Origin: Mobula hypostoma
Taxonomy: Eukaryota
Direction: 5' to 3'
Length of the DNA: 64,000 nt
NCBI RefSeq assembly: GCF_963921235.1
Contig: NC_086107.1
Coordinates: 95,544,001-95,608,000, forward strand
Shown: piece by piece, positions 40,950-60,499 of the stretch
Layout: each line of letters opens with the position of its first letter
How positions within the stretch are numbered: position 1 is the first letter of the stretch
Notes under the pieces: generated by a model
What the model was told of the DNA's origin: nothing
What the model saw: only the letters and a program-made list of their open reading frames with translations
The model's database searches: none
Made by a program: the position numbers and the translations under genes

Positions 40950-41964
40950 CTCCAGCAACAAAGTCTCACTAATGGCTGCAATGTCATAATACTACTTGCT
41001 AATCTATGCTCTAACTCATTAACTTTACCTACAATACTCCTTGCAGTGAAATAAACTCATTAGGATATTACCCCCACCATGCTGAACCTTTTGATTCCTG
41101 TCTTTGTGTGTAGACTTAACATCTTTCCCCACAACCACTCCATTATCTCTCCTGGCACTTTGGCTCCCATCCTTCTGTCACTCCAGTTTAATTCTCTTCC
41201 CCCGCCCTCCCCCCAATGCAGTCCCACTGCAATTCAGGTGCAAACCCTCATATCTGTACAGATCTCAGCTTCCTTGAAAGAAAGCCAAAACCCTCCATCC
41301 TGCATTGTCTCCCTGTCATGTATTAAACTGTGTTATCCTCCTATTTCTGGTCTCCCTAGCATGTGGCATGGGAACCAATCCTGAGATCACAGCCCTGGAT
41401 TTCCCGTCTGTTAACCTAGCACTTAATTCCTGGAACTTACTTTCCAGGTCCTCATCAATCTATCATGTTGTGTTGACATGGACCACAACATGAGGCTGTT
41501 CACCTTTCTACTTAAGAAACCTATGGACTTGATCTGTGATGTTCTTGTCTCTGGCATCTGGGAGGCAATGTACTATCTGGGATTCCCCTAGCTGGCCGCA
41601 ATAGGTCTACGGCAGACGTGATCTCATTGGCTCTCCATGTGGCTTTGGTTCACCTGGACGATACAAATACCTATGTCAGGATGCTGTTTATTGACTACAG
41701 CTCAGCATTTAACACCATCGTACCTACAGTTCTAATGAAAAAGATGATGCTGATCATTAAGGACCTCCCATTGCCCAGGATATGCCGTTCTCTCATTGCT
41801 ACCATCAGGAAGAAGGCACAGAAGCCTGAAGACATACACTGCATGATTCATGAACAGCTTCTTCCTCTCTGCCATCTGATTTCTGAATGGCCATTGAACC
41901 GATGAGCACCACCTCACTCTTATTTCAATTTTTGTACTCTTTATTTAACTATTTTATATGTGTG

Positions 41965-50594: not shown

Positions 50595-53500
50595 TGTCAA
50601 GTCAGATTTCTTTTTCTTCTTTGAACATGTGCAGCTTCCCCACTTGAAAGAGATTGAATGTGTCTATCGGAAGTTTTTTAACTGGATTCCACTCAATGAC
50701 CAAACAACTTTTCCTTTTTCCTCCTTTTATTTTTCACAAGTGCAGCAGTTTGATAGTTCCATTAGTTCCATCAACCATTAGATATTAGTCATTAGTCATT
50801 AGGTGAAAAAACTGGCTGCCTCTCCGGACTTTGTAGACGGATTCGATCTGCACAGTCTTCGCTCCCTAATAGACCGTTATGTTTTCAAACCGAGTGACCC
50901 TTCCCGAAGGTTCCCGAGCTCTTCTTAAACCTCGCGCCATTTCCCAGAAGTGCTTGTGCGTGATGATCCCCGTGGTGTGAAGCTAACGCTAACCCAAAAC
51001 GCAGTGACAGCAGTGCTCTTTTCCATGAAACAGTCTCTCAAGTTATTTAAAGTTCAGCATCTTACCGCAGATTCCAACGCTGCACCTGGACTGCCGCTGT
51101 GATGCTGCTGGGTCCCCCCATTGTTCCAGGCAGAAGCAGCACTCAGGTAGTGGGTTCCATCCGGTCTATCAGTGGATTCTTGCTATTACTTTTAAATTTT
51201 ATTTTCTTTTGCCTCTAGGTCCCAATACTTTCTAGAAAGTCCAGTTTGACCTGACACCTCCCACTCAATCTTCCCGTGGAAACACTGGAGAGATTGCCAG
51301 CTTCAAAGGCAAACTTGGTGGTCCCAGTTCGGTGTTCTTATGATGTATTGTTGACTTGACTTTCCATCTGTTCCTCAGCAGGTAGCAAGACAACCAGCCG
51401 CCTGACGTCCCTGTGAAGGATGGTGGCTTGGATCCTGTCATTTTTCCCATCAGAGATTGGATGCCTGTTGTTACTTTGGGAGCTTATGTCACAGGAACAC
51501 TGTAGGTTGGGAAGATCCCGACGTTGACGTCCCTCAAGATGCCTTTGCTGTCTGGATTAGTATTGATAACTCTGCGCTAATACTATCCCACTTCCACCAC
51601 TCTAGGAAGTCCCGGTTGGTGCTTGAAGTACCTGACTCCTGGAGCTTGATGCCATCCTGTTTGTTTGGTGGAAGTTGCTCTGGGACTGTGCTGGTGAGCT
51701 CCTCGTACTTTACAGCAGCCGCTGTCATTGACCTTGCAAAATGTGTCTTGGACATGTAGGCCGACACAGACAGCTCCTAAAAGAGATCAGGATGTGCAGC
51801 TCCGACCGTCTTCCCCAGTGGTCCGTCCCACAGCACGAAGTCTCCAACAGCTCTGGTTCCCTGAGGCGCTAGCTCACCTTCTCTATGGCTTATGAGTAAA
51901 TTTATTTCTCTGAGTCTCACAAGTTCATCAAACGGTGTGTCTGGGAAGAATTTCTGCATTTGCTTCGGTGTCACATATTTGTGGACATTTGCAATGCTGT
52001 CTAGTCCATAACAAACCAATTGGTGTGATTTGAGAGTGCCCTTGGGAGTGTTTACTCAATTTTTAGAAGGTACCGCTTTGTCTCCACCTGAACCTTCATC
52101 CCCCCAACTCCATGGACGACGAGAGTGATTTCCTCACTTCTGAGGTTCAGTCTGCTTGCAACCTTGTGGGTTATATAATTGGTGTCTGAAGCCAAGTCAA
52201 TTAACGTCCCGATTTTTTGCCTAGCTTTAGCTGTGACCTTGAGAAGCATCATAATCACTGGCAGCTCTTGCAATCCACTTTCCACCAGAAGGCCCAGTTT
52301 ATCTTTCACAGTGCTGAAAGCTCTGGATGCAGTGTTTGAAAATACATCGCGACATTGTTTGGCCGATTCTGGCGAAAGTTTGCTGAAGAACTCCTCTTGA
52401 AGAGATCCTCTGAATATTTCTTCCTGCTTTTATCCTCCTCTGGACCAAATCTGCTCTTTTTCTGACCTGCGCTGCTTTTCTTTATTTTAGCATTGGGTCA
52501 CAGATAGTAATGATTTTCAGGAGTATGCTCATCCTTGCAGTCTTGGTTTTTACACAGATAGGCGGGATTGCAGTATGAACTGTCATCATTAACCTCGAGA
52601 CACCTCTTGCATGCCCCCAACTTTCTTACTGCAGCCTTTTTCTCTGGTAGCTTTAACGCTCGAAACTGTTTGCAAAAGTAGAGCTTCCTTTTGTGCTTTC
52701 CATCATCGCAGACTACACACCTTCCATGGTCGTTGCTTGACTTGGTAGACTTGGTTCTGGCATGTCTTGGCTCAGCCCTGGTTTCTCTTCTACTTGGCTC
52801 TTCATCCCTCAGTTGCTCGAGCTGCTCATATATGCTCTCAAGCCCTTTGAGGAATTCCAAGAGACTGTCAAACTGATTATCTGGTGCCACAGCATTTTTC
52901 CTGTCAGCGACATAGACCAGCCATTCCTTTTAGAGAGTTTCTGGAAGTTTACTTTCAATTGATTTTGTCACCAGCGGATTTTTGATAGCACCCGTGTCTC
53001 CAAGGTCACTCAAGTCTTGAAGTGCCTTCTCCACAGCTTGAATTAATTCCACTATCTTCCGTGACTGATGATTTCTGACAGCTGGCATTTTCTGTAACTC
53101 TTTCACTATTTCAATAGCAATGCACGTTTGATTTCCATAGCGGTTTTCTAGAACATGAAAGATGTTGTCTGCAGTTTTAAGTAGTGAGGCGAAGGTCTCT
53201 TCTGATTTTGTCGTCAAGACTGTCCAATAGTTGAACCTTTTTCACCTCTCTTGAACCGATCGTCTCTCCCTGCCTTTGGAGTGCTTCCCAGTCCTTTCTC
53301 CACCTGTGAAAATCACATTTGCTGCCAGTAAATTTGGGAAGGGCCGTTGGTTTCAATCTGATGGCTGGTGTGGGAAAATTGGAGGAAAAGCCCAACACCG
53401 TCGGTATTAGTCTTTCAGCATCCTCCTTTCTCCTTGCCTGTATGAAGTGGGCCTTCTTGGAAACCAACTTGGGGATGTGGGGTTCGAGCCTCTTTAGGTG

Positions 53501-54869
53501 ACTCCGAAGGTCCTTCTGATCCCCTGGCGGGATCCATCCTTTCCACCGACCATGCACATCCTTTGCTGTCTTTACCAGTCCTTGCAGGTGGTTAAGCATG
53601 TAGTCATATGCCTCCTGGTTGCCATCGGGTTGTACAGCAGAGACGTTTTTACATTCATCCTCTGCTGCTTGTAGTACTGTGAACAGTTCAACATTTCCAA
53701 AGTTGGTCCAAAGAGTCTCCTGGATTAGGCTTCTGACCTCCTTTAGTTTCAACTGACACTCATTTGCTGCCTTTGCCAGGTCAGCTTTTTGCTGTTCAGT
53801 TAACACAGCTACTTCCTCTGCGTTCAGCTCCACCTCCAGTTTTGCAGTGAGTCCGGCCTCCACATCATCTTTGGCTTCCATGACTTTCTCGGCTTCTATT
53901 GTGAGTTTATTGAAACTGACTCTGAGCTCCTCTTCAGACATGTCTTTATAGGTCCTGGTAATACTGTTGACCAGACGAGAAAATAATCTTTTTGCTGTCG
54001 TTCGCTCTATCTTGAGTTGCTCAACTGATTTCCCAGTAGCTTGATCAGCCATGTTTGATTTCCTCTGCAGGCTGTTCACAGGTGAGAAGGTAAGTACAAC
54101 TTTTTAATGATGCTTTGATGTTGTTTTATCTTAACTTGATTTTCTTCCTTTTTCGGGAATCCAAGTTATTGCTGCTGCTGTTCCAGCTCAAAGCTCCCAG
54201 TTTTCAGTTTCCCGGTCAACCAGTTTTTTTCACTGTCAAGTGGGATTTCTTTTTCTTCTTTGAACATGTGCAGCTTCCCCACTTGAAAGAGATTGAATGC
54301 GTCTATCTGAAGGTTTTTTAACTGGATTCCACTCAATGACCAAACTTATTTTTCGCAAATGCAGTAGTTTGATAGTTCCATTAGTTCCATCAGCCATTAG
54401 CCATGAGCTATTAGACAATAGTCATTAGACATTAAACATTAGTCATTAGGTGAAAAAACTGGCTGCCTCTCCGGACTTCGTAGACGGATTCGACCTGTGC
54501 AGTCTCCGCTCCCTAATAGACCGTTATGTTTTCAAACTGGGTGACCCTTCCCGAGCTCTTCTTAAACCTCGCACCATTTTCCATAAGTGTCTGCATGCGA
54601 TCTAACCCAAAACGCAGTAACAGCAGTGCTCTTTTCCATGAAACAGTCTCTCAAGTTATTTAAAGTTCAGCATCTTACCGCAGATTCCAACGCTGCTCCC
54701 GGACTGCCGCTGTGATGCTGCTGGGTCCCCCCAGTGTTCCGGGCAGAAGCAGCACTCAGGCAGTGGGTTCCATCCGGTCTATCAGTGGATTCTTGCTATT
54801 ACTTTTAAATTTTATTTTCTTTTACCTCTAGGTCCCAATATTTTCTAGAAACTCTAGTTTGACTTGACA
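50595..54869 (-). mobile_element. BEL/Pao LTR retrotransposon, internally deleted (gag and protease only), decayed
   Basis: LTRs 50595-51256 and 54234-54869 (TGTCA..TGACA); possible 5-bp TSD aataa/actaa; Gag LKPTALPKFTG..W and three Cys/His knuckles; protease GTLIDLASDTNYIT; C-terminal RDVRRLVVLLPAEE; polypurine tract gggaagattgagtgggagg before the 3' LTR; RT, RNase H and integrase core absent. Confidence 0.9.
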
Positions 54870-56239
54870 ACTAACATCACATTTTCATTCAAATCAGGCA
54901 TATGCATGTGTATGATATATATTACATATAATATTTCACAAACATTGGAATTCCCAACACTGATCCTTCAAGAACTCTGGTCACACACCTCCAGTCAGAA
55001 TACTATCCCTCCAGCATGACAATCTGCCCTCTATAGCCAAGCCAAGTTGAATCCTATCTACCAAGTCTGCATGGATCACATGTACCTTAATTTTCTGAAT
55101 CTACTATAAGGAGCCTTGTCAAAAGCTTTGACATATTCTGTGTACAAAGTCTAAAGTTGTTTCCTCATTAATCAGTTATGTCACCTCTAGTTTATAAGGC
55201 AAGCTGTCCTCTGTACAAAGCCATGCTAATGTCTACAATCAAGACTGATTCAAATGCCATCTATAAATTTGCAGATGACACCACTGTAGTTGGTAAAATC
55301 TTAGATGGAGAAGGAGAGGCATAGAGAATTGAGATAGGTTGACTGGTTGAGTGGTGTTGCAACTACAACCTCACACTAGCTGATCTGTCCTGGACCCAAC
55401 ACGTTAATGTACTTATGAAGAAGCACATCAGCAGTATTACTTTGTTATTAGTTTGAGGAGATTTGGTATGTCACCAAAGACTTGCAAATTTCTGTGTGAT
55501 GTGACAGTGGAGAGTAGTCTGATTGGTTGCATCACCAATCAGAATGAGGCTCTAGTGCATAGGATCACAAAAAGCTTCCGAGACTTACAGACTCAAGCCA
55601 TTTCCTTCAGGGGCATAACCCTCTATTTCTTAAAGGACATCAGCAAGAGATGGTTCCTCAGGAAGGATGCATCAATCACTCACCATCAAGGACGTGCTCT
55701 CTTCTCACTACTACCATCAGAGAAGACATGCAGGAGCCAAAAGACCAACACTCAAGGATTCAGAAAAAAGCTTCTTCCTCTCCAGCATTAGATTTCAAAA
55801 CTATCCATGAATACTAGCTCATTATTCCATTTTTTGCACTACTTCATAATTTTTCAATTCATAATAATTTACTGTTTTTGTATTGAACTTCTGATGTAAA
55901 ACAACACATTTCACGTCATATGAGATAGTAAAAAGAAATTGATTCTGACTATCCCTACTAATTCTGTACTTTTCCAGATCCTATCCCCAAGGTGAGATCA
56001 TGAGAATGAATGGGATTTTTCAGTTTCATATCAAATGTTTAATCAGTGATGCATTATTAGTTCATGCTGACAATCACATCAACTGGCAGTTACTTACAAT
56101 GCAACAGTGTAAGTTTAATAAAACTAAAAGCATTTATTCAAAATTTCTCATTTGAGTGCTATATTTTGAGCAAAGAAAAGTACATATATTGAGATAGATG
56201 GGAAATCAAGGGACTTTTTTTTTCTCCAACGGCTTTCTG

Positions 56240-56300
56240 AGAGGCGGGACTGCGCAGGCGTGTGACGTAGGGCAGTGCAGCGCGGCAGATTTAAAAGGAA
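56240..56300 (+). promoter_or_regulatory. Putative internal promoter of the CR1 5' UTR
   Basis: GC-box-like GAGGCGGGAC, NRF1-like TGCGCAGGCG, CRE-like TGACGT and AT-rich TTTAAAA in a CpG-rich segment. Confidence 0.4.
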
Positions 56301-56460
56301 CAGAGCCTCATAGAGCGGGCAGCGTAGTTTGCGGGCGGCGGAGTGAGCCGGGAGCAGAGTGAAGACTTAAGGGCTTCGGCTCACCGGGCTTAGGCGGAAG
56401 CGGGTGAGGCGAGGAAGGTTTGACATTCATTTTCTGTTGCTATTTGAGGAGAGGGGCATT

Positions 56461-57396
56461 ATGACTGTGAGGGCAGTTTGCTGTTCTCGGTGTCGGATGT
56501 GGGAGGCCCTGGAGTCTCCAAGCCTCCCGGACGTCTACATCTGCGCCAAGTGCATCGAGATGCAGCTCCTAAGGGACCGCGTTACGGAACTGGAGCTGCA
56601 GCTCGATGACCTTCGTCTGGTCAGGGAGAGTGAGGAGGTGATAGAGAGGAGTGGAAGGCAGGTGGTCACGCCGGGGCCACGGGAGGCAGACAAGTGGGTC
56701 ACGGTTAGGAGGGGGAAGGGGAAAAGGAAGGTGATGGGGAGTACCCCGGCGGCTGTGCCCCTTAACAACAGGTACTCCTGTTTGAGTACTGTTGGGGGGG
56801 ACAGCTTACCCGGGGGAAGCGACAGTGGCCCTGCCTCCGGCACAGAGTCTGGCCCTGTAGCTCAGAAGGGTAGGGCAAGGAAGAGGAGGGCAGTTGTGAT
56901 AGGGGACTCGATAGTAAGGGGGTCAGATAGGCGATTCTGTGGACGCAGTCCAGAGACTCGGATGGTAGTTTGCCTCCCTGGTGCCAGGGTCCGGGATATT
57001 TCTGATCGTGTCCAAGATATCCTGAAGTGGGAGGGTGAAGAGCCAGAGGTCCTGGTACATATAGGTACCAATGACATAGGTAGGAAAAGGGATGAGGTCC
57101 TGAAAGGGGAATATAGGGAGCTAGGAAGGGAGTTGAGAAAAAGGACCGCAAAGGTAGTAATCTCGGGATTACTGCCTGTGCCACGCGACAGTGAGAGTAG
57201 GAATGCGATGAGGTGGAGGATAAATGCGTGGCTGAGGGATTGGAGCAGGGGGCAGGGATTCAAGTTTTTGGATCATTGGGACCTCTTTTGGCGCAGGTGT
57301 GACCTGTACAAAAAGGACGGGTTACACTTAAATCCTCGGGGGACCAATATCCTGGCAGGGAGATTAGCGGGGGCTACTGAGGTGACTTTAAACTAG
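56461..57396 (+). CDS. CR1 ORF1p: Cys zinc finger, leucine zipper and SGNH/GDSL esterase-like domain
   Basis: CSRC..CAKC, LRDRVTELELQLDDL, VIGDSIVRG, HIGTND, DGLHL; first ATG at 56461. Confidence 0.92.
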   Translation: MTVRAVCCSRCRMWEALESPSLPDVYICAKCIEMQLLRDRVTELELQLDDLRLVRESEEVIERSGRQVVTPGPREADKWVTVRRGKGKRKVMGSTPAAVPLNNRYSCLSTVGGDSLPGGSDSGPASGTESGPVAQKGRARKRRAVVIGDSIVRGSDRRFCGRSPETRMVVCLPGARVRDISDRVQDILKWEGEEPEVLVHIGTNDIGRKRDEVLKGEYRELGRELRKRTAKVVISGLLPVPRDSESRNAMRWRINAWLRDWSRGQGFKFLDHWDLFWRRCDLYKKDGLHLNPRGTNILAGRLAGATEVTLN

Positions 57397-57401
57397 AATG
57401 G

Positions 57402-60401
57402 TTGGGGGGGGGGAATCAAATTAAAGCGGCTAGGTGTGAGGAGGTTAGTTCACAACAGAGGGATGGGAACCAGTGCAGAGAGACAGAGGGGTGTAAAGTG
57501 AGCGTAGAAGCAAAAAGTACAAAGGGGAAAAGTAAAAGTGGCAGGCCGACAAATCCAGGGCAAGCATTAAAAAGGGCTAAGAGAGTTGTAAAAGAGTGCC
57601 TGAAGGCTTTATGTGTCAATGCAAGGAGCATTCGTAATAAGGTGGATGAATTGAAAGTGCAGATTGTTATTAATGATTATGATATAGTTGGGATCACAGA
57701 GACATGGCTCCAGGGTGACCAGGGATGGGAGCTCAACGTTCAGGGATATTCAATATTCAGGAGGGATAGACACGAAGGAAGGGGAGGTGGGGTGGCGTTG
57801 CTGGTTAAAAAAGAGATTAACGCAATAGAAAGGAAGGACATAAGCCGGGAAGATGTGGAATCGATATGGGTAGAGCTGCGTAACACTAAGGGGCAGAAGA
57901 CGCTGGTGGGAGTTGTGTACAGGCCACCTAACAGTAGTAGTGAGGTCGGAGATGGTATTAAACAGGAAATTAGAAATGTGTGCAATAAAGGAACAGCAGT
58001 TATAATGGGTGACTTCAATCTACATGTAGACTGGGTGAACCAAATTGGTAAAGGTGCTGAGGAAGAGGATTTCTTGGAATGTATGCGGGATGGTTTTTTG
58101 AACCAACATGTCGAGGAACCGACTAGAGAGCAGGCTATTCTGGACTGGGTTTTGAGCAATGAGGAAGGGTTAATTAGCGATCTTGTCGTGAGAGGCCCCT
58201 TGGGTAAGAGTGACCATAATATGGTGGAATTCTTCATTAACATGGAGAGTGACGTAGTTAATTCAGAAACAAAGGTTCTGAACTTAAAGAGGGGTAACTT
58301 TGAAGGTATGAGACATGAATTAGCTAAGATAGACTGGCAAATGACACTTCAAGGATTGACGGTGGATATGCAATGGCAGGCATTTAAAGGTTGCATGGAT
58401 GAACTACAACAATTGTTCATCCCAGTTTGGCAAAAGAATAAATCAAGGAAGGTAGTGCACCCGTGGCTGACAAGAGAAATTAGGGATAGTATCAATTCCA
58501 AAGAAGTAGCATACAAATTAGCCAGAGAAAGTGGCTCACCTGAGGACTGGGAGAAATTCAGAGTTCAGCAGAGGAGGACAAAGGGCTTAATTAGGAAGGG
58601 GAAAAAAGATTATGAGAGAAAACTGGCAGAGAACATAAAAACGGACTGTAAAAGCTTTTATAGATATGTAAAAAGGAAAAGACTGATAAAGACAAATGTA
58701 GGTCCCCTGCAAACAGAAACAGGTGAATTGATTATGGGGAGCAAGGACATGGCAGACCAATTGAATAATTACTTTGGTTCTGTCTTCACTAAGGAGGACA
58801 TAAATAATCTTCCAGAAATAGTAAGGGACAGAGGGTCCAGTGAGATGGAGGAACTGAGCGAAATACATGTTAGTAGGGAAGTGGTGTTAGGTAAATTGAA
58901 GGGATTGAAGGCAGATAAATCCCCAGGGCCAGATGGTCTGCATCCCAGAGTGCTTAAGGAAGTGGCCCAAGAAATAGTGGATGCATTAGTGATAATTTTT
59001 CAAAACTCGTTAGATTCTGGACTAGTTCCTGAGGATTGGAGGGTGGCTAATGTAACCCCACTTTTTAAAAAAGGAGGGAGAGAGAAACCGGGGAATTATA
59101 GGCCGGTTAGCCTAACGTCGGTGGTGGGGAAACTGCTGGAGTCAGTTATCAAGGATGTGATAACAGCACATTTGGAAAGCGGTGAAATGATCGGACAAAG
59201 TCAGCATGGATTTGTGAAAGGAAAATCATGTCTGACGAATCTCATAGAATTTTTTGAGGATGTAACTAGTAGAGTGGATAGGGGAGAACCAGTGGATGTG
59301 GTATATTTGGATTTTCAAAAGGCTTTTGACAAGGTCCCACATAGGAGATTAGTGTGCAAACTTAAAGCACACGGTATTGGGGGTAAGGTATTGGTGTGGG
59401 TGGAGAATTGGTTAGCAGACAGGAAGCAAAGAGTGGGAATAAACGGGACCTTTTCAGAATGGCAGGCGGTGACTAGTGGGGTACCGCAAGGCTCAGTGCT
59501 GGGACCCCAGTTGTTTACAATATATATTAATGACTTGGATGAGGGAATTAAATGCAGCATCTCCAAGTTTGCGGATGACACGAAGCTGGGTGGCAGTGTT
59601 AGCAGTGAGGAGGATGCTAAGAGGATGCAGGGTGACTTGGATAGGTTGGGTGAGTGGGCAAACTCATGGCAGATGCAATTTAATGTGGATAAATGTGAAG
59701 TTATCCACTTTGGTGGCAAAAATAGGAAAACAGATTATTATCTGAATGGTGGCCGATTAGGAAAAGGGGAGGTGCAACGAGACCTGGGTGTCATTATACA
59801 CCAGTCATTGAAAGTGGGCATGCAGGTACAGCAGGCGGTGAAAAAGGCGAACGGTATGCTGGCATTTATAGCGAGAGGATTCGAGTACAGGAGCAGGGAG
59901 GTACTACTGCAGTTGTACAAGGCCTTGGTGAGACCACACCTGGAGTATTGTGTGCAGTTTTGGTCCCCTAATCTGAGGAAAGACATCTTTGCCATAGAGG
60001 GAGTACAAAGAAGGTTCACCAGATTGATTCCTGGGATGGCAGGTCTTTCATATGAAGAAAGACTGGATGAACTGGGCTTGTACTCGTTGGAATTTAGAAG
60101 ATTGAGGGGGGATCTGATTGAAACGTATAAGATCCTAAAGGGATTGGACAGGCTAGATGCAGGAAGATTGTTCCCGATGTTGGGGAGGTCTAGAACGAGG
60201 GGTCACAGTTTGAGGATAGAGGGGAAGCCTTTTAGGACCGAGGTTAGGAAAAACTTCTTCACACAGAGAGTGGTGAATCTGTGGAATTCTCTGCCACAGC
60301 AAACTGTTGAGGCCAGTTCATTAGCTATGTTTAAAAGGAAGTTAGATATGGCCCTTGTGGCTACAGGGGTCAGGGGGTATGGAGGGAAGGCTGGGTTCTG
60401 A
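57402..60401 (+). CDS. CR1 ORF2p: APE endonuclease plus reverse transcriptase; no AUG at its 5' end
   Basis: NARS, ITETW, YRPP, GDFN, SDH, GVPQGSVLGP, KFADD, VRPHLEYC; the frame is open from 57381. Confidence 0.95.
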   Translation: MGGGNQIKAARCEEVSSQQRDGNQCRETEGCKVSVEAKSTKGKSKSGRPTNPGQALKRAKRVVKECLKALCVNARSIRNKVDELKVQIVINDYDIVGITETWLQGDQGWELNVQGYSIFRRDRHEGRGGGVALLVKKEINAIERKDISREDVESIWVELRNTKGQKTLVGVVYRPPNSSSEVGDGIKQEIRNVCNKGTAVIMGDFNLHVDWVNQIGKGAEEEDFLECMRDGFLNQHVEEPTREQAILDWVLSNEEGLISDLVVRGPLGKSDHNMVEFFINMESDVVNSETKVLNLKRGNFEGMRHELAKIDWQMTLQGLTVDMQWQAFKGCMDELQQLFIPVWQKNKSRKVVHPWLTREIRDSINSKEVAYKLARESGSPEDWEKFRVQQRRTKGLIRKGKKDYERKLAENIKTDCKSFYRYVKRKRLIKTNVGPLQTETGELIMGSKDMADQLNNYFGSVFTKEDINNLPEIVRDRGSSEMEELSEIHVSREVVLGKLKGLKADKSPGPDGLHPRVLKEVAQEIVDALVIIFQNSLDSGLVPEDWRVANVTPLFKKGGREKPGNYRPVSLTSVVGKLLESVIKDVITAHLESGEMIGQSQHGFVKGKSCLTNLIEFFEDVTSRVDRGEPVDVVYLDFQKAFDKVPHRRLVCKLKAHGIGGKVLVWVENWLADRKQRVGINGTFSEWQAVTSGVPQGSVLGPQLFTIYINDLDEGIKCSISKFADDTKLGGSVSSEEDAKRMQGDLDRLGEWANSWQMQFNVDKCEVIHFGGKNRKTDYYLNGGRLGKGEVQRDLGVIIHQSLKVGMQVQQAVKKANGMLAFIARGFEYRSREVLLQLYKALVRPHLEYCVQFWSPNLRKDIFAIEGVQRRFTRLIPGMAGLSYEERLDELGLYSLEFRRLRGDLIETYKILKGLDRLDAGRLFPMLGRSRTRGHSLRIEGKPFRTEVRKNFFTQRVVNLWNSLPQQTVEASSLAMFKRKLDMALVATGVRGYGGKAGF

Positions 60402-60499
60402 GTTGGATGATCAGCCATGATCATAATAAATGGCGGTGCAGGCTCGAAGGGCCGAATGGCCTACTCCTGCACCTATTTTCTATGTTTCTATGTTTCTAA

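Follow-up and report, generated by a model that had tools for sequence, protein, structure and literature searches.

How does a retrotransposon translate its second open reading frame (ORF) when that frame lacks a start codon ahead of its first enzymatic motifs? The question is raised by a full-length CR1-type long interspersed nuclear element (LINE) in a 64,000-nt stretch of the Mobula hypostoma genome (contig NC_086107.1, positions 95,544,001 to 95,608,000 of the forward strand; the whole stretch is called the window hereafter, and positions are counted from its first letter). How ORF2 is translated from a bicistronic LINE RNA is a long-standing open question, and a first-pass annotation of the window had offered as an answer for this element a candidate programmed -1 ribosomal frameshift (-1 PRF) at a UUUAAAC heptamer at the end of ORF1, which would make ORF2 as an ORF1-ORF2 fusion. 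Strong comparative evidence supports that reading, and from the sequences we regard a programmed -1 frameshift yielding a 1313-aa fusion as the probable route to ORF2.

The ORF1/ORF2 junction of the window copy

The features on which the argument depends are the following.

56461 to 57396, + strand: ORF1, 311 aa, C-terminus ...EVTLN, with CxxC...CxxC, a coiled coil and an SGNH/GDSL esterase; homologues 99-29% identical
57378 to 57380, + strand: TGA, the upstream closure of the -1 (ORF2) frame
57381 to 60401, + strand: open ORF2 frame, 1006 codons, with an apurinic-type endonuclease (APE) and a reverse transcriptase (RT)
57387 to 57393, + strand: candidate slippery heptamer TTTAAAC (U_UUA_AAC), X_XXY_YYZ in the ORF1 phase (ACT TTA AAC)
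57393 to 60401, + strand: ORF2 portion of the trans-frame product as predicted, starting at CUA 57393 and 1002 codons long, stop at 60399-60401
57394 to 57396, + strand: ORF1 stop TAG (UAG), abutting the heptamer
57398 to 57424, + strand: third-frame ATG opening an 8-codon ORF (MVGGGESN) that ends in TAA; in the ORF2 frame only if the spacer is 9
57404 to 57413, + strand: G-rich box, G10 in the window and GGGGGGTGGG in most copies, starting 10 nt past the heptamer, of which the first five Gs make up the conserved G5 box

Checking the sequence bore out the annotated junction: the heptamer is in phase, it adjoins the TAG and the two ORFs overlap by 13 nt. TTTAAAC is the sole canonical slip site within the overlap, and as the TGA at 57378-57380 ends the -1 frame upstream, any shift is confined to 57381-57393. 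The first ATG of the ORF2 frame, at 58005, is residue 209 (208 codons in) and lies, as had been annotated, past the endonuclease motifs NARS (residue 80), ETW (107) and YRPP (180); the annotated fusion of about 1310 aa agrees with the 1313 aa that we compute.

In the proposed mechanism, ribosomes translating ORF1 would arrive at U_UUA_AAC, where UUA would fill the P site and AAC the A site, and a small fraction would slip one base back, onto UUU and AAA, and go on to read CUA GAA UGG UUG GGG. The fusion would read ...EVTLN-LEWLGGGNQ... across the junction, with TLNLEWLGGGNQIK as the predicted junction peptide, and the remaining ribosomes would stop at the UAG that adjoins the heptamer, yielding the esterase-type ORF1 protein (ORF1p) of 311 aa. 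Such a shift would set a high ratio of ORF1p to ORF2 protein (ORF2p), and the fusion would tie ORF2 to its own RNA and to the ORF1p multimer, as Gag-Pol is tied in retroviruses. LINEs need ORF1p in large excess over ORF2p (established for L1), so that a weakly stimulated site may be enough, and -1 frameshifting at UUUAAAC is textbook knowledge. In the accessible part of a recoding review U_UUA_AAC is ranked among the most shift-prone heptamers on mammalian ribosomes (PMC5009743). Among the features of canonical -1 PRF, an in-phase X_XXY_YYZ heptamer lies in the overlap, and site, phase and frame relation are all conserved, as set out below.

Junctions within the genome

The family of the window copy is young. 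In the 3.48-Gb assembly, the 32 loci sampled have 99.35-100% identity to the window; full-length siblings start at 56215/56216 and many others are 5′-truncated. Of 30 loci, 26 are open over the first 538 codons of ORF2, and 11 have a complete ORF1. Recent multiplication of the family implies that ORF2 is expressed from its AUG-less arrangement.

Searching the genome with two diverged ORF1 proteins (133 and 126 matches listed) gave 20 further junctions, chosen on the ORF1 protein match alone and taken as 426 nt around each ORF1 end. The choice favoured matches that reach the C-terminus, with few or no stops and a spread of identity classes, and the lineages sampled have 40-60% ORF1 identity to the window. 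TTTAAAC is present in 18 of the 20, and the remaining two, old copies, have TTTAAAT and TTTGAAC, with Leu-Asn still encoded. In 19 of the 20 the heptamer position is directly followed by a stop (TAA or TAG, and TGA once), and the -1 frame of the sampled junctions continues into ..LYLNARSI..ITETWL. A pattern search of the genome for the module TTTAAAC-TAR-N7-GGGGG gave 22,141 matches, versus 8 for the reversed control pattern, with at least 32 different spacers among the first 100 matches listed.

The window itself holds the remains of another such junction.

41186 to 41192, - strand: decayed CR1 junction of an old family, ATTAAAC TGG ... GAAGGATGGGA

The first-pass annotation had read ATTAAAC here correctly and had misplaced it, at 41176-41182. 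Among relatives of this copy TTTAAAC is found in 10 of 25 alignable copies, mostly followed by TAGAGTTGCAGGGGGATGGGAAC, while eight have one-base variants and seven no match, a pattern that, on the sequences, is as expected of neutral decay from the same ancestral junction.

One lineage of the same genome (L063-L067, L072) has a poly-G run, G8 to G13, immediately 5′ of TTTAAAC. Because the length of this run differs among copies, ORF1 is in frame with ORF2, with no shift, in some of them (G8, G11); the lineage is among the matches with open frames of 443-707 aa, and the gene models P0036 and P0121 are fused likewise.

Spacer length and the ATG at 57398

An alternative offered with the first-pass annotation was a stop-restart at TAGAATG, in which the ATG at 57398 would start ORF2 if the G run were G9. 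A related explanation, which we hold to be extremely improbable, is that polymerase slippage or an assembly error in the G run makes this ATG the ORF2 start, either in some of the transcripts or in the actual master copy; the window copy does carry a G10 homopolymer, and two genomic copies have a 9-nt filling. The copy counts speak against both. All 40 scored genomic matches to the 201-nt junction (1596 candidates) are ∼100% identical, and a pattern with free filling after six Gs gave 886 matches in the genome and none for its control. GGGGGGTGGG, which is no homopolymer, is found in all 100 of the matches listed from the 886, and genome-wide ∼870 copies read GGGGGGTGGG versus 15 with pure G10; in 30 fetched loci, a sample enriched for exact window matches, 19 have GGGGGGTGGG and 11 have G10. 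The spacer length is 10 in ∼880 copies, 9 in two (one G9, one G5TG3) and 11 in two, so G9 is not the family consensus.

T at 57410 is likewise found in contigs of uncertain kind from four public runs, which belong to four studies and to organisms coded A-D, at depths of 12248.1/12248.1, 1723.1/1732.4, 5.4/5.4 and 26/26, and these contigs list no insertions or deletions. From 57381 to 57409 they contain no indels and no variant with a share of 5% or more, and 36 variable places lie in the flanks; contigs, not raw RNA reads, were compared, and rare variants are lost in contigs. On the copy counts and these contigs, the G10 of the window is a derived T-to-G change, synonymous in the ORF2 frame (GGT to GGG), and the annotated G10 at 10 nt past the heptamer thus holds for the window copy and fails as the family state. 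Since the spacer length of 10 is nearly fixed, the ATG at 57398 is out of frame across the family, and by the same comparison the AUG-less frame relation is a property of the family as a whole; an ORF2 start codon overlapping or near the ORF1 stop is absent from it save for the two in-frame copies. Pattern counts and the contigs of the four runs reject a stop-restart at ATG 57398 through a G9 consensus, and copy counts and run contigs (contigs only) reject transcriptional slippage in the G run. Most other lineages, moreover, have no ATG at this place or have one in another frame, and they retain the heptamer.

Conservation in other organisms

ORF1 has 171 homologues at E ≤ 1e-5, the best 120 of which were examined. 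The source labels of these 120 name sharks, rays, coelacanth, frogs, turtles, squamates, a crocodilian and a hummingbird, at identities down to 29%, and the closest named homologue, 99% identical, is labelled devil ray. We kept the 87 that have the esterase motif DG.HL in their last 40 residues and set aside 33, mostly truncated or chimeric models. The C-terminus is Leu-Asn (LN) in 79 of the 87, and also in five of those set aside (P0003, P0112, P0113, P0114, P0118). LN is preceded in 77 of the 79 by G, A, T, S, Y, C, D, F or I, all with NNU codons, and in the other two by E. An alignment of 22 sequences, with a mean column identity of 33%, has only 17 invariant columns, and L310 and N311 are two of them.

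Conservation of this kind could also arise if the module served a function other than recoding, such as binding of ORF1p or RT, packaging, or a C-terminal Leu-Asn that the esterase requires, with ORF2 translated by internal entry or from a downstream non-AUG start. In the protein alignment LN indeed varies no more than the catalytic residues do, the distance from DG.HL to the C-terminus is 26 residues in 73 of the 87 homologues, and the G5 box described below has no known role in frameshifting. However, of the 12 codon pairs that could specify Leu-Asn, the one used in 18 of the 20 protein-matched junctions is TTA AAC, and the codon before TTA AAC ends in T regardless of its amino acid. The more distant esterase ORF1 homologues P0115 and P0116 have DG.HL and end differently, and the module is placed exactly where the two frames must join. 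We therefore consider a non-recoding role improbable as the explanation of the module.

Scanning metagenome contigs with the 22-sequence alignment gave 39 loci, 19 of which include the ORF1 end. The heptamer there is TTTAAAC in 16 of the 19, GTTAAAC in one and absent from two, which are decayed copies; 15 of the 17 junctions with a heptamer (GTTAAAC counted) have a stop immediately after it, and the -1 frame leads into ..NARS..ITE[ST]W. Bird-type CR1 ORF1s are found among these junctions (..DHGAVYSAPG..RALN), with a -1 frame that runs from FKLxxKGEGD... into ..YTNARSM..ITETWW. Heptamer, phase, adjacent stop and -1 ORF2 are hence conserved across the CR1 lineages compared. The GTTAAAC junction (L089) continues with TAG and has a G5 box just 7 nt away, in an otherwise typical ORF1 end; G_UUA_AAC is an arterivirus slip site according to the accessible part of the recoding review (PMC5009743).

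A search among longer homologues for natural ORF1-ORF2 fusion proteins gave five matches, all of them chimeric or indel-fused gene models and, as artefacts, uninformative. Several database records hold a CR1 ORF1 under an unrelated name (P0020, P0025, P0064, P0065, P0119, P0121, P0122), including a Pseudomonas SGNH hydrolase on a 4-kb contig, a '40S ribosomal protein S24 isoform', 'transmembrane protein 204' isoforms and 'hydroxyacid oxidase 2', which points to contamination and chimeric gene models.

A G5 box downstream of the stop

Fifteen representatives, falling into 10 clusters with flanks less than 55% identical (near random), were anchored on the heptamer and compared column by column. 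TTTAAACTA occupies positions 0-8 in all 15, but the metagenome representatives were located through the heptamer, so that this invariance is in part a product of how they were chosen and to that extent counts against frameshifting; the G box is unaffected, and the heptamer counts free of this bias are the 18 of 20 from the own genome and the 16 of 19 from the metagenome. Position 9 is a purine. G is found at +17 to +20 in 15 of 15 representatives and at +21 in 14 of 15, whereas no other column from -24 to +44 exceeds 12 of 15 and the flanking columns reach 5-12 of 15. Of the 26 junctions collected, 25 have enough sequence to be scored, and 21 of these have five or more Gs starting 9-10 nt past the heptamer; the other four are one-base variants.

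Read in the ORF2 frame, the box is xxG GGG Gxx, and its Gly codon is invariably GGG. The residues beside it vary (Leu, Gln or Lys before; Gly, Ala, Glu, Asp or Val after), with G kept at the third and first codon positions. Fixed Gs beside varying residues, together with a Gly that is always GGG, show the box to be constrained at the level of RNA rather than protein. As defined by this comparison, the putative signal module consists of UUUAAAC, an immediate stop, a variable spacer of 6-7 nt and the G5 box, and by its distribution it is ancestral to vertebrate esterase-ORF1 CR1 elements.

The junction of the window copy appears to have moved as a unit.

57456 to 57471, + strand: remnant of an older G-box, CAGAGGGATGGGAACC, from comparison of the window with L079; one run's contigs have a loose end at 57456

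From 57456 the ORF2 of the window matches the sequence directly after the sister family's (L079) own junction, TTTAAACTAATG / TTTAAACTAATGTGGCAGGGGGATGGGAAC. This match and the old G-box at 57456-57471 suggest that ORF1 plus junction were swapped as a module by recombination, in keeping with the reticulate evolution of ORF1 described in the accessible part of PMC4120745.

Stimulatory structure and termination-reinitiation

Several observations weigh against a frameshift at this site, among them those on RNA structure. A stem-loop or pseudoknot 5-9 nt past the heptamer is a canonical feature of -1 PRF, and none was found here: the window and the 25 junctions have no conserved downstream stem-loop or pseudoknot, in folds that did not search for pseudoknots explicitly. 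The downstream 127 nt of the window fold no better than shuffles (z = -0.73), the downstream 100-nt folds of the 25 junctions mostly have z from -1.4 to +1.3 with only L069 (-2.9) and L084 (-2.0) lower, and a two-layer G-quadruplex is predicted in a subset only (the window, L012, L079, L081, L082, L099). Nor does the G box have an evident partner, as 56215-60490 contains no CCCCC and eight CCCC, and no Rfam frameshift element lies at the junction, with two chance-level matches elsewhere in the element. We know of no case in which a G5 box 10 nt downstream is an established stimulator or has a role in frameshifting, and of no vertebrate LINE for which an ORF1-ORF2 fusion has been demonstrated. 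With no stem-loop conserved, the candidate stimulators would be the adjacent stop, the linear G-rich box, or both; stimulators that start 12-15 nt 3′ of a slip site may be linear RNA acting with trans-factors, according to the accessible part of PMC5009743.

Four bird-type CR1 junctions from the metagenome (L087, L093, L094, L099) have a hairpin ∼27 nt past the heptamer, CCAGGC..GCCTGG (GGCTC..GAGCC in L094), with changes on both sides across the four related copies. Its distance to the slip site is too great for that of a classical stimulator, and the other lineages lack the hairpin.

The start codons near the stop bring in a further objection. ORF2 lies in the -1 frame without a conventional start in the window family, L068, L084, L086 and L088, and not in all lineages: an in-frame AUG is at the stop or within two codons of it in L079 and L105 (TAATG), L083, L087 and L093, which is the arrangement of the LINE SART1, and a Met stands ahead of the APE motif in L074, L081 and L094. 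Reinitiation could therefore serve those lineages. In its general form this explanation holds that a 40S subunit or whole ribosome would stay on the RNA after the UAG, with UUUAAAC-stop-G5 as a retention and restart signal, and that termination-coupled, AUG-independent reinitiation in the -1 frame, at a near-cognate codon (UUG 57402) or an AUG, would give a separate ORF2 protein. It would account for a stop that is as conserved as the heptamer and adjoins it, since plain tandem slippage needs no such stop, and a UGGGA-like motif is present within the G-box of several lineages. Human L1 ORF2 is said to start independently of its own AUG, a point on which Odon 2013 cites Alisch 2006 only as 'not clear'.

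Reinitiation gives no account, however, of an exact in-phase X_XXY_YYZ kept at synonymous positions in ∼10 unrelated clusters. The in-frame AUG is not conserved, with none before the APE motifs in the window family and the four lineages listed with it, and the codon at the position of the UUG is CAG or AAG in most other lineages. Motif 1 of the termination upstream ribosome-binding site (TURBS) is an upstream UGGGA complementary to 18S rRNA. Such a UGGGA within 90 nt upstream is found in only 2 of the 15 representatives, and a conserved TURBS-like motif is thus rejected. Because the stop strictly adjoins the heptamer and some lineages have in-frame AUGs near the stop, termination-reinitiation stays alive as a rival, one that we judge unlikely.

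Relation to known systems

If frameshifting is indeed the mode of ORF2 expression, its closest parallel in sequence is with coronaviruses and sobemoviruses, which share the identical U_UUA_AAC in the same phase, a downstream polymerase ORF without start codon and a fusion that coincides N-terminally with the upstream product. They differ in relying on a pseudoknot or stem-loop 5-9 nt downstream, whereas for CR1 none is predicted or conserved, and in lacking the CR1 combination of a 0-frame stop abutting the heptamer, a linear G5 box at 10 nt and a cellular LINE as host. A stop immediately after the slip site is known from luteoviruses and dianthoviruses (GGGUUUU UAG, GGAUUUU UAG), which, unlike CR1, use large or long-range RNA structures. 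A linear, base-biased motif ∼10-14 nt past the slip site recalls the protein-dependent -1/-2 PRF of arteriviruses (the C-rich motif of nsp2TF) and the 2A-bound stem-loop of cardioviruses, except that the CR1 motif is G-rich. With the Gag-Pol of retroviruses and other long terminal repeat (LTR) elements CR1 would have in common a nucleic-acid-binding structural protein in excess, a rare RT fusion from the same RNA and the logic of ratio control and co-assembly; in contrast, non-LTR elements have no protease to free Pol, and the ORF1 product of CR1 is not a Gag but a protein with zinc knuckle, coiled coil and esterase.

Among LINE-like elements, the Dictyostelium non-LTR retrotransposons TRE5-A and TRE3-A use a -1 frameshift to express ORF2, according to the accessible part of PMC5911963, and are a precedent from another clade and an amoeba host, for which that text reports no deep conservation of the vertebrate-wide type. 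SART1 couples ORF2 to the ORF1 stop through UAAUG and needs a downstream structure, according to the accessible parts of PMC3708506 and PMC3894237. SART1 and human L1 resemble CR1 in having a bicistronic LINE RNA with ORF2 coupled to the ORF1 stop, and the UAAUG itself recurs in L079 and L105; unlike them, the window family has no in-frame AUG, the slip heptamer ending at the stop is conserved and no downstream structure was found.

A link between CR1 and ribosomal frameshifting was not found in the searchable open literature, a body of text that does not include the earliest CR1 papers. The accessible part of the recoding review (PMC5009743) does not mention CR1; in that of a review of non-LTR protein biogenesis 'frameshift' is absent and ORF2 translation is called 'an interesting and important question'; Odon 2013 describes the mechanism of ORF2 translation, in the part available, as 'not clear' and has no mention of frameshifting there; and a 2022 chicken report and a 117-genome survey of avian CR1 describe ORFs, with frameshifting absent from their accessible text. 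The first-pass annotation mentioned an earlier proposal of a frameshift in avian CR1.

Such a proposal is neither confirmed nor excluded by this search. What appears to be new is the conserved slip site at the CR1 ORF1/ORF2 junction, and the unusual feature, if upheld, would be the stop-plus-G-box cassette. A junction module that is short, invariant and easily mutated makes the ORF2 question directly testable by reporter. If the frameshift is real, a vertebrate LINE uses the retroviral Gag-Pol strategy; the scoring of intact or active CR1 copies would change, as current surveys, in their accessible text, score ORF2 alone, and so would the handling of CR1 loci by gene predictors, several database models being chimeric or artificially fused.

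A bolder extension, which we put forward as doubtful, is that all vertebrate esterase-ORF1 CR1 elements, from sharks to birds, make their RT solely as a Gag-Pol-like fusion through a structure-free UUUAAAC-stop-G5 cassette. At the mouth of the mRNA channel the G-box would be bound by a protein, either the element's own ORF1p or a G-tract binder of the host, and the level of ORF1p would autoregulate frameshifting and hence retrotransposition. If true, vertebrate LINEs would have their first conserved recoding signal, and the protein-dependent stimulators would gain a new class.

Anatomy and class of the element

The remaining features of the element are as follows.

56215 to 60498, + strand: full-length young CR1-type LINE, ∼4.28 kb; 5′ end from sibling copies, 3′ end (∼60498) read from sequence
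56215 to 56460, + strand: 5′ untranslated region (UTR), with an 84-nt start segment at 56215-56298 that is tandem in some copies
60435 to 60473, + strand: 3′ UTR hairpin, in which GGTGCAGG (60435-60442) pairs with CCTGCACC (60466-60473), read from sequence
60478 to 60498, + strand: (TTCTATGT)n short octamer microsatellite tail, TTCTATGT TTCTATGT TTCTA, with no poly(A)

The ORF1 esterase matches Pfam Lipase_GDSL_2 (7.9e-16) and follows an N-terminal CxxC..CxxC and heptad region, and ORF2 matches Exo_endo_phos (3e-12), Exo_endo_phos_2 (1.3e-9) and RVT_1 (1.1e-33), an apurinic-type endonuclease and then RT. CR1 is the dominant LINE in birds, reptiles and cartilaginous fishes. A hairpin and microsatellite at the 3′ end are given as a CR1 hallmark in the accessible part of PMC8665684, and a type IV ORF1, an esterase with zinc finger or leucine zipper, is assigned to CR1 and an L2 subgroup in that of PMC4120745. 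Placed by its ORF2 domains, 3′ UTR and ORF1 type (type IV being non-exclusive to CR1), the element is a recently active LINE of the CR1 clade.

At the 5′ end, some full-length elements have one or two extra upstream copies of the 84-nt segment 56215-56298, ∼173 nt apart (L005, L020, L028, L029), and L022 has an inverted unit; these variable units resemble the promoter monomers of mouse L1. Just upstream of the element, a 308-aa open frame with a coiled-coil, Gag-like look lies on the minus strand at 53177-54103. A tblastn search with both ORFs gave 45 matches across the 64-kb window, which make up at least 12 CR1-like fragments of widely differing ages, on both strands and in some cases nested.

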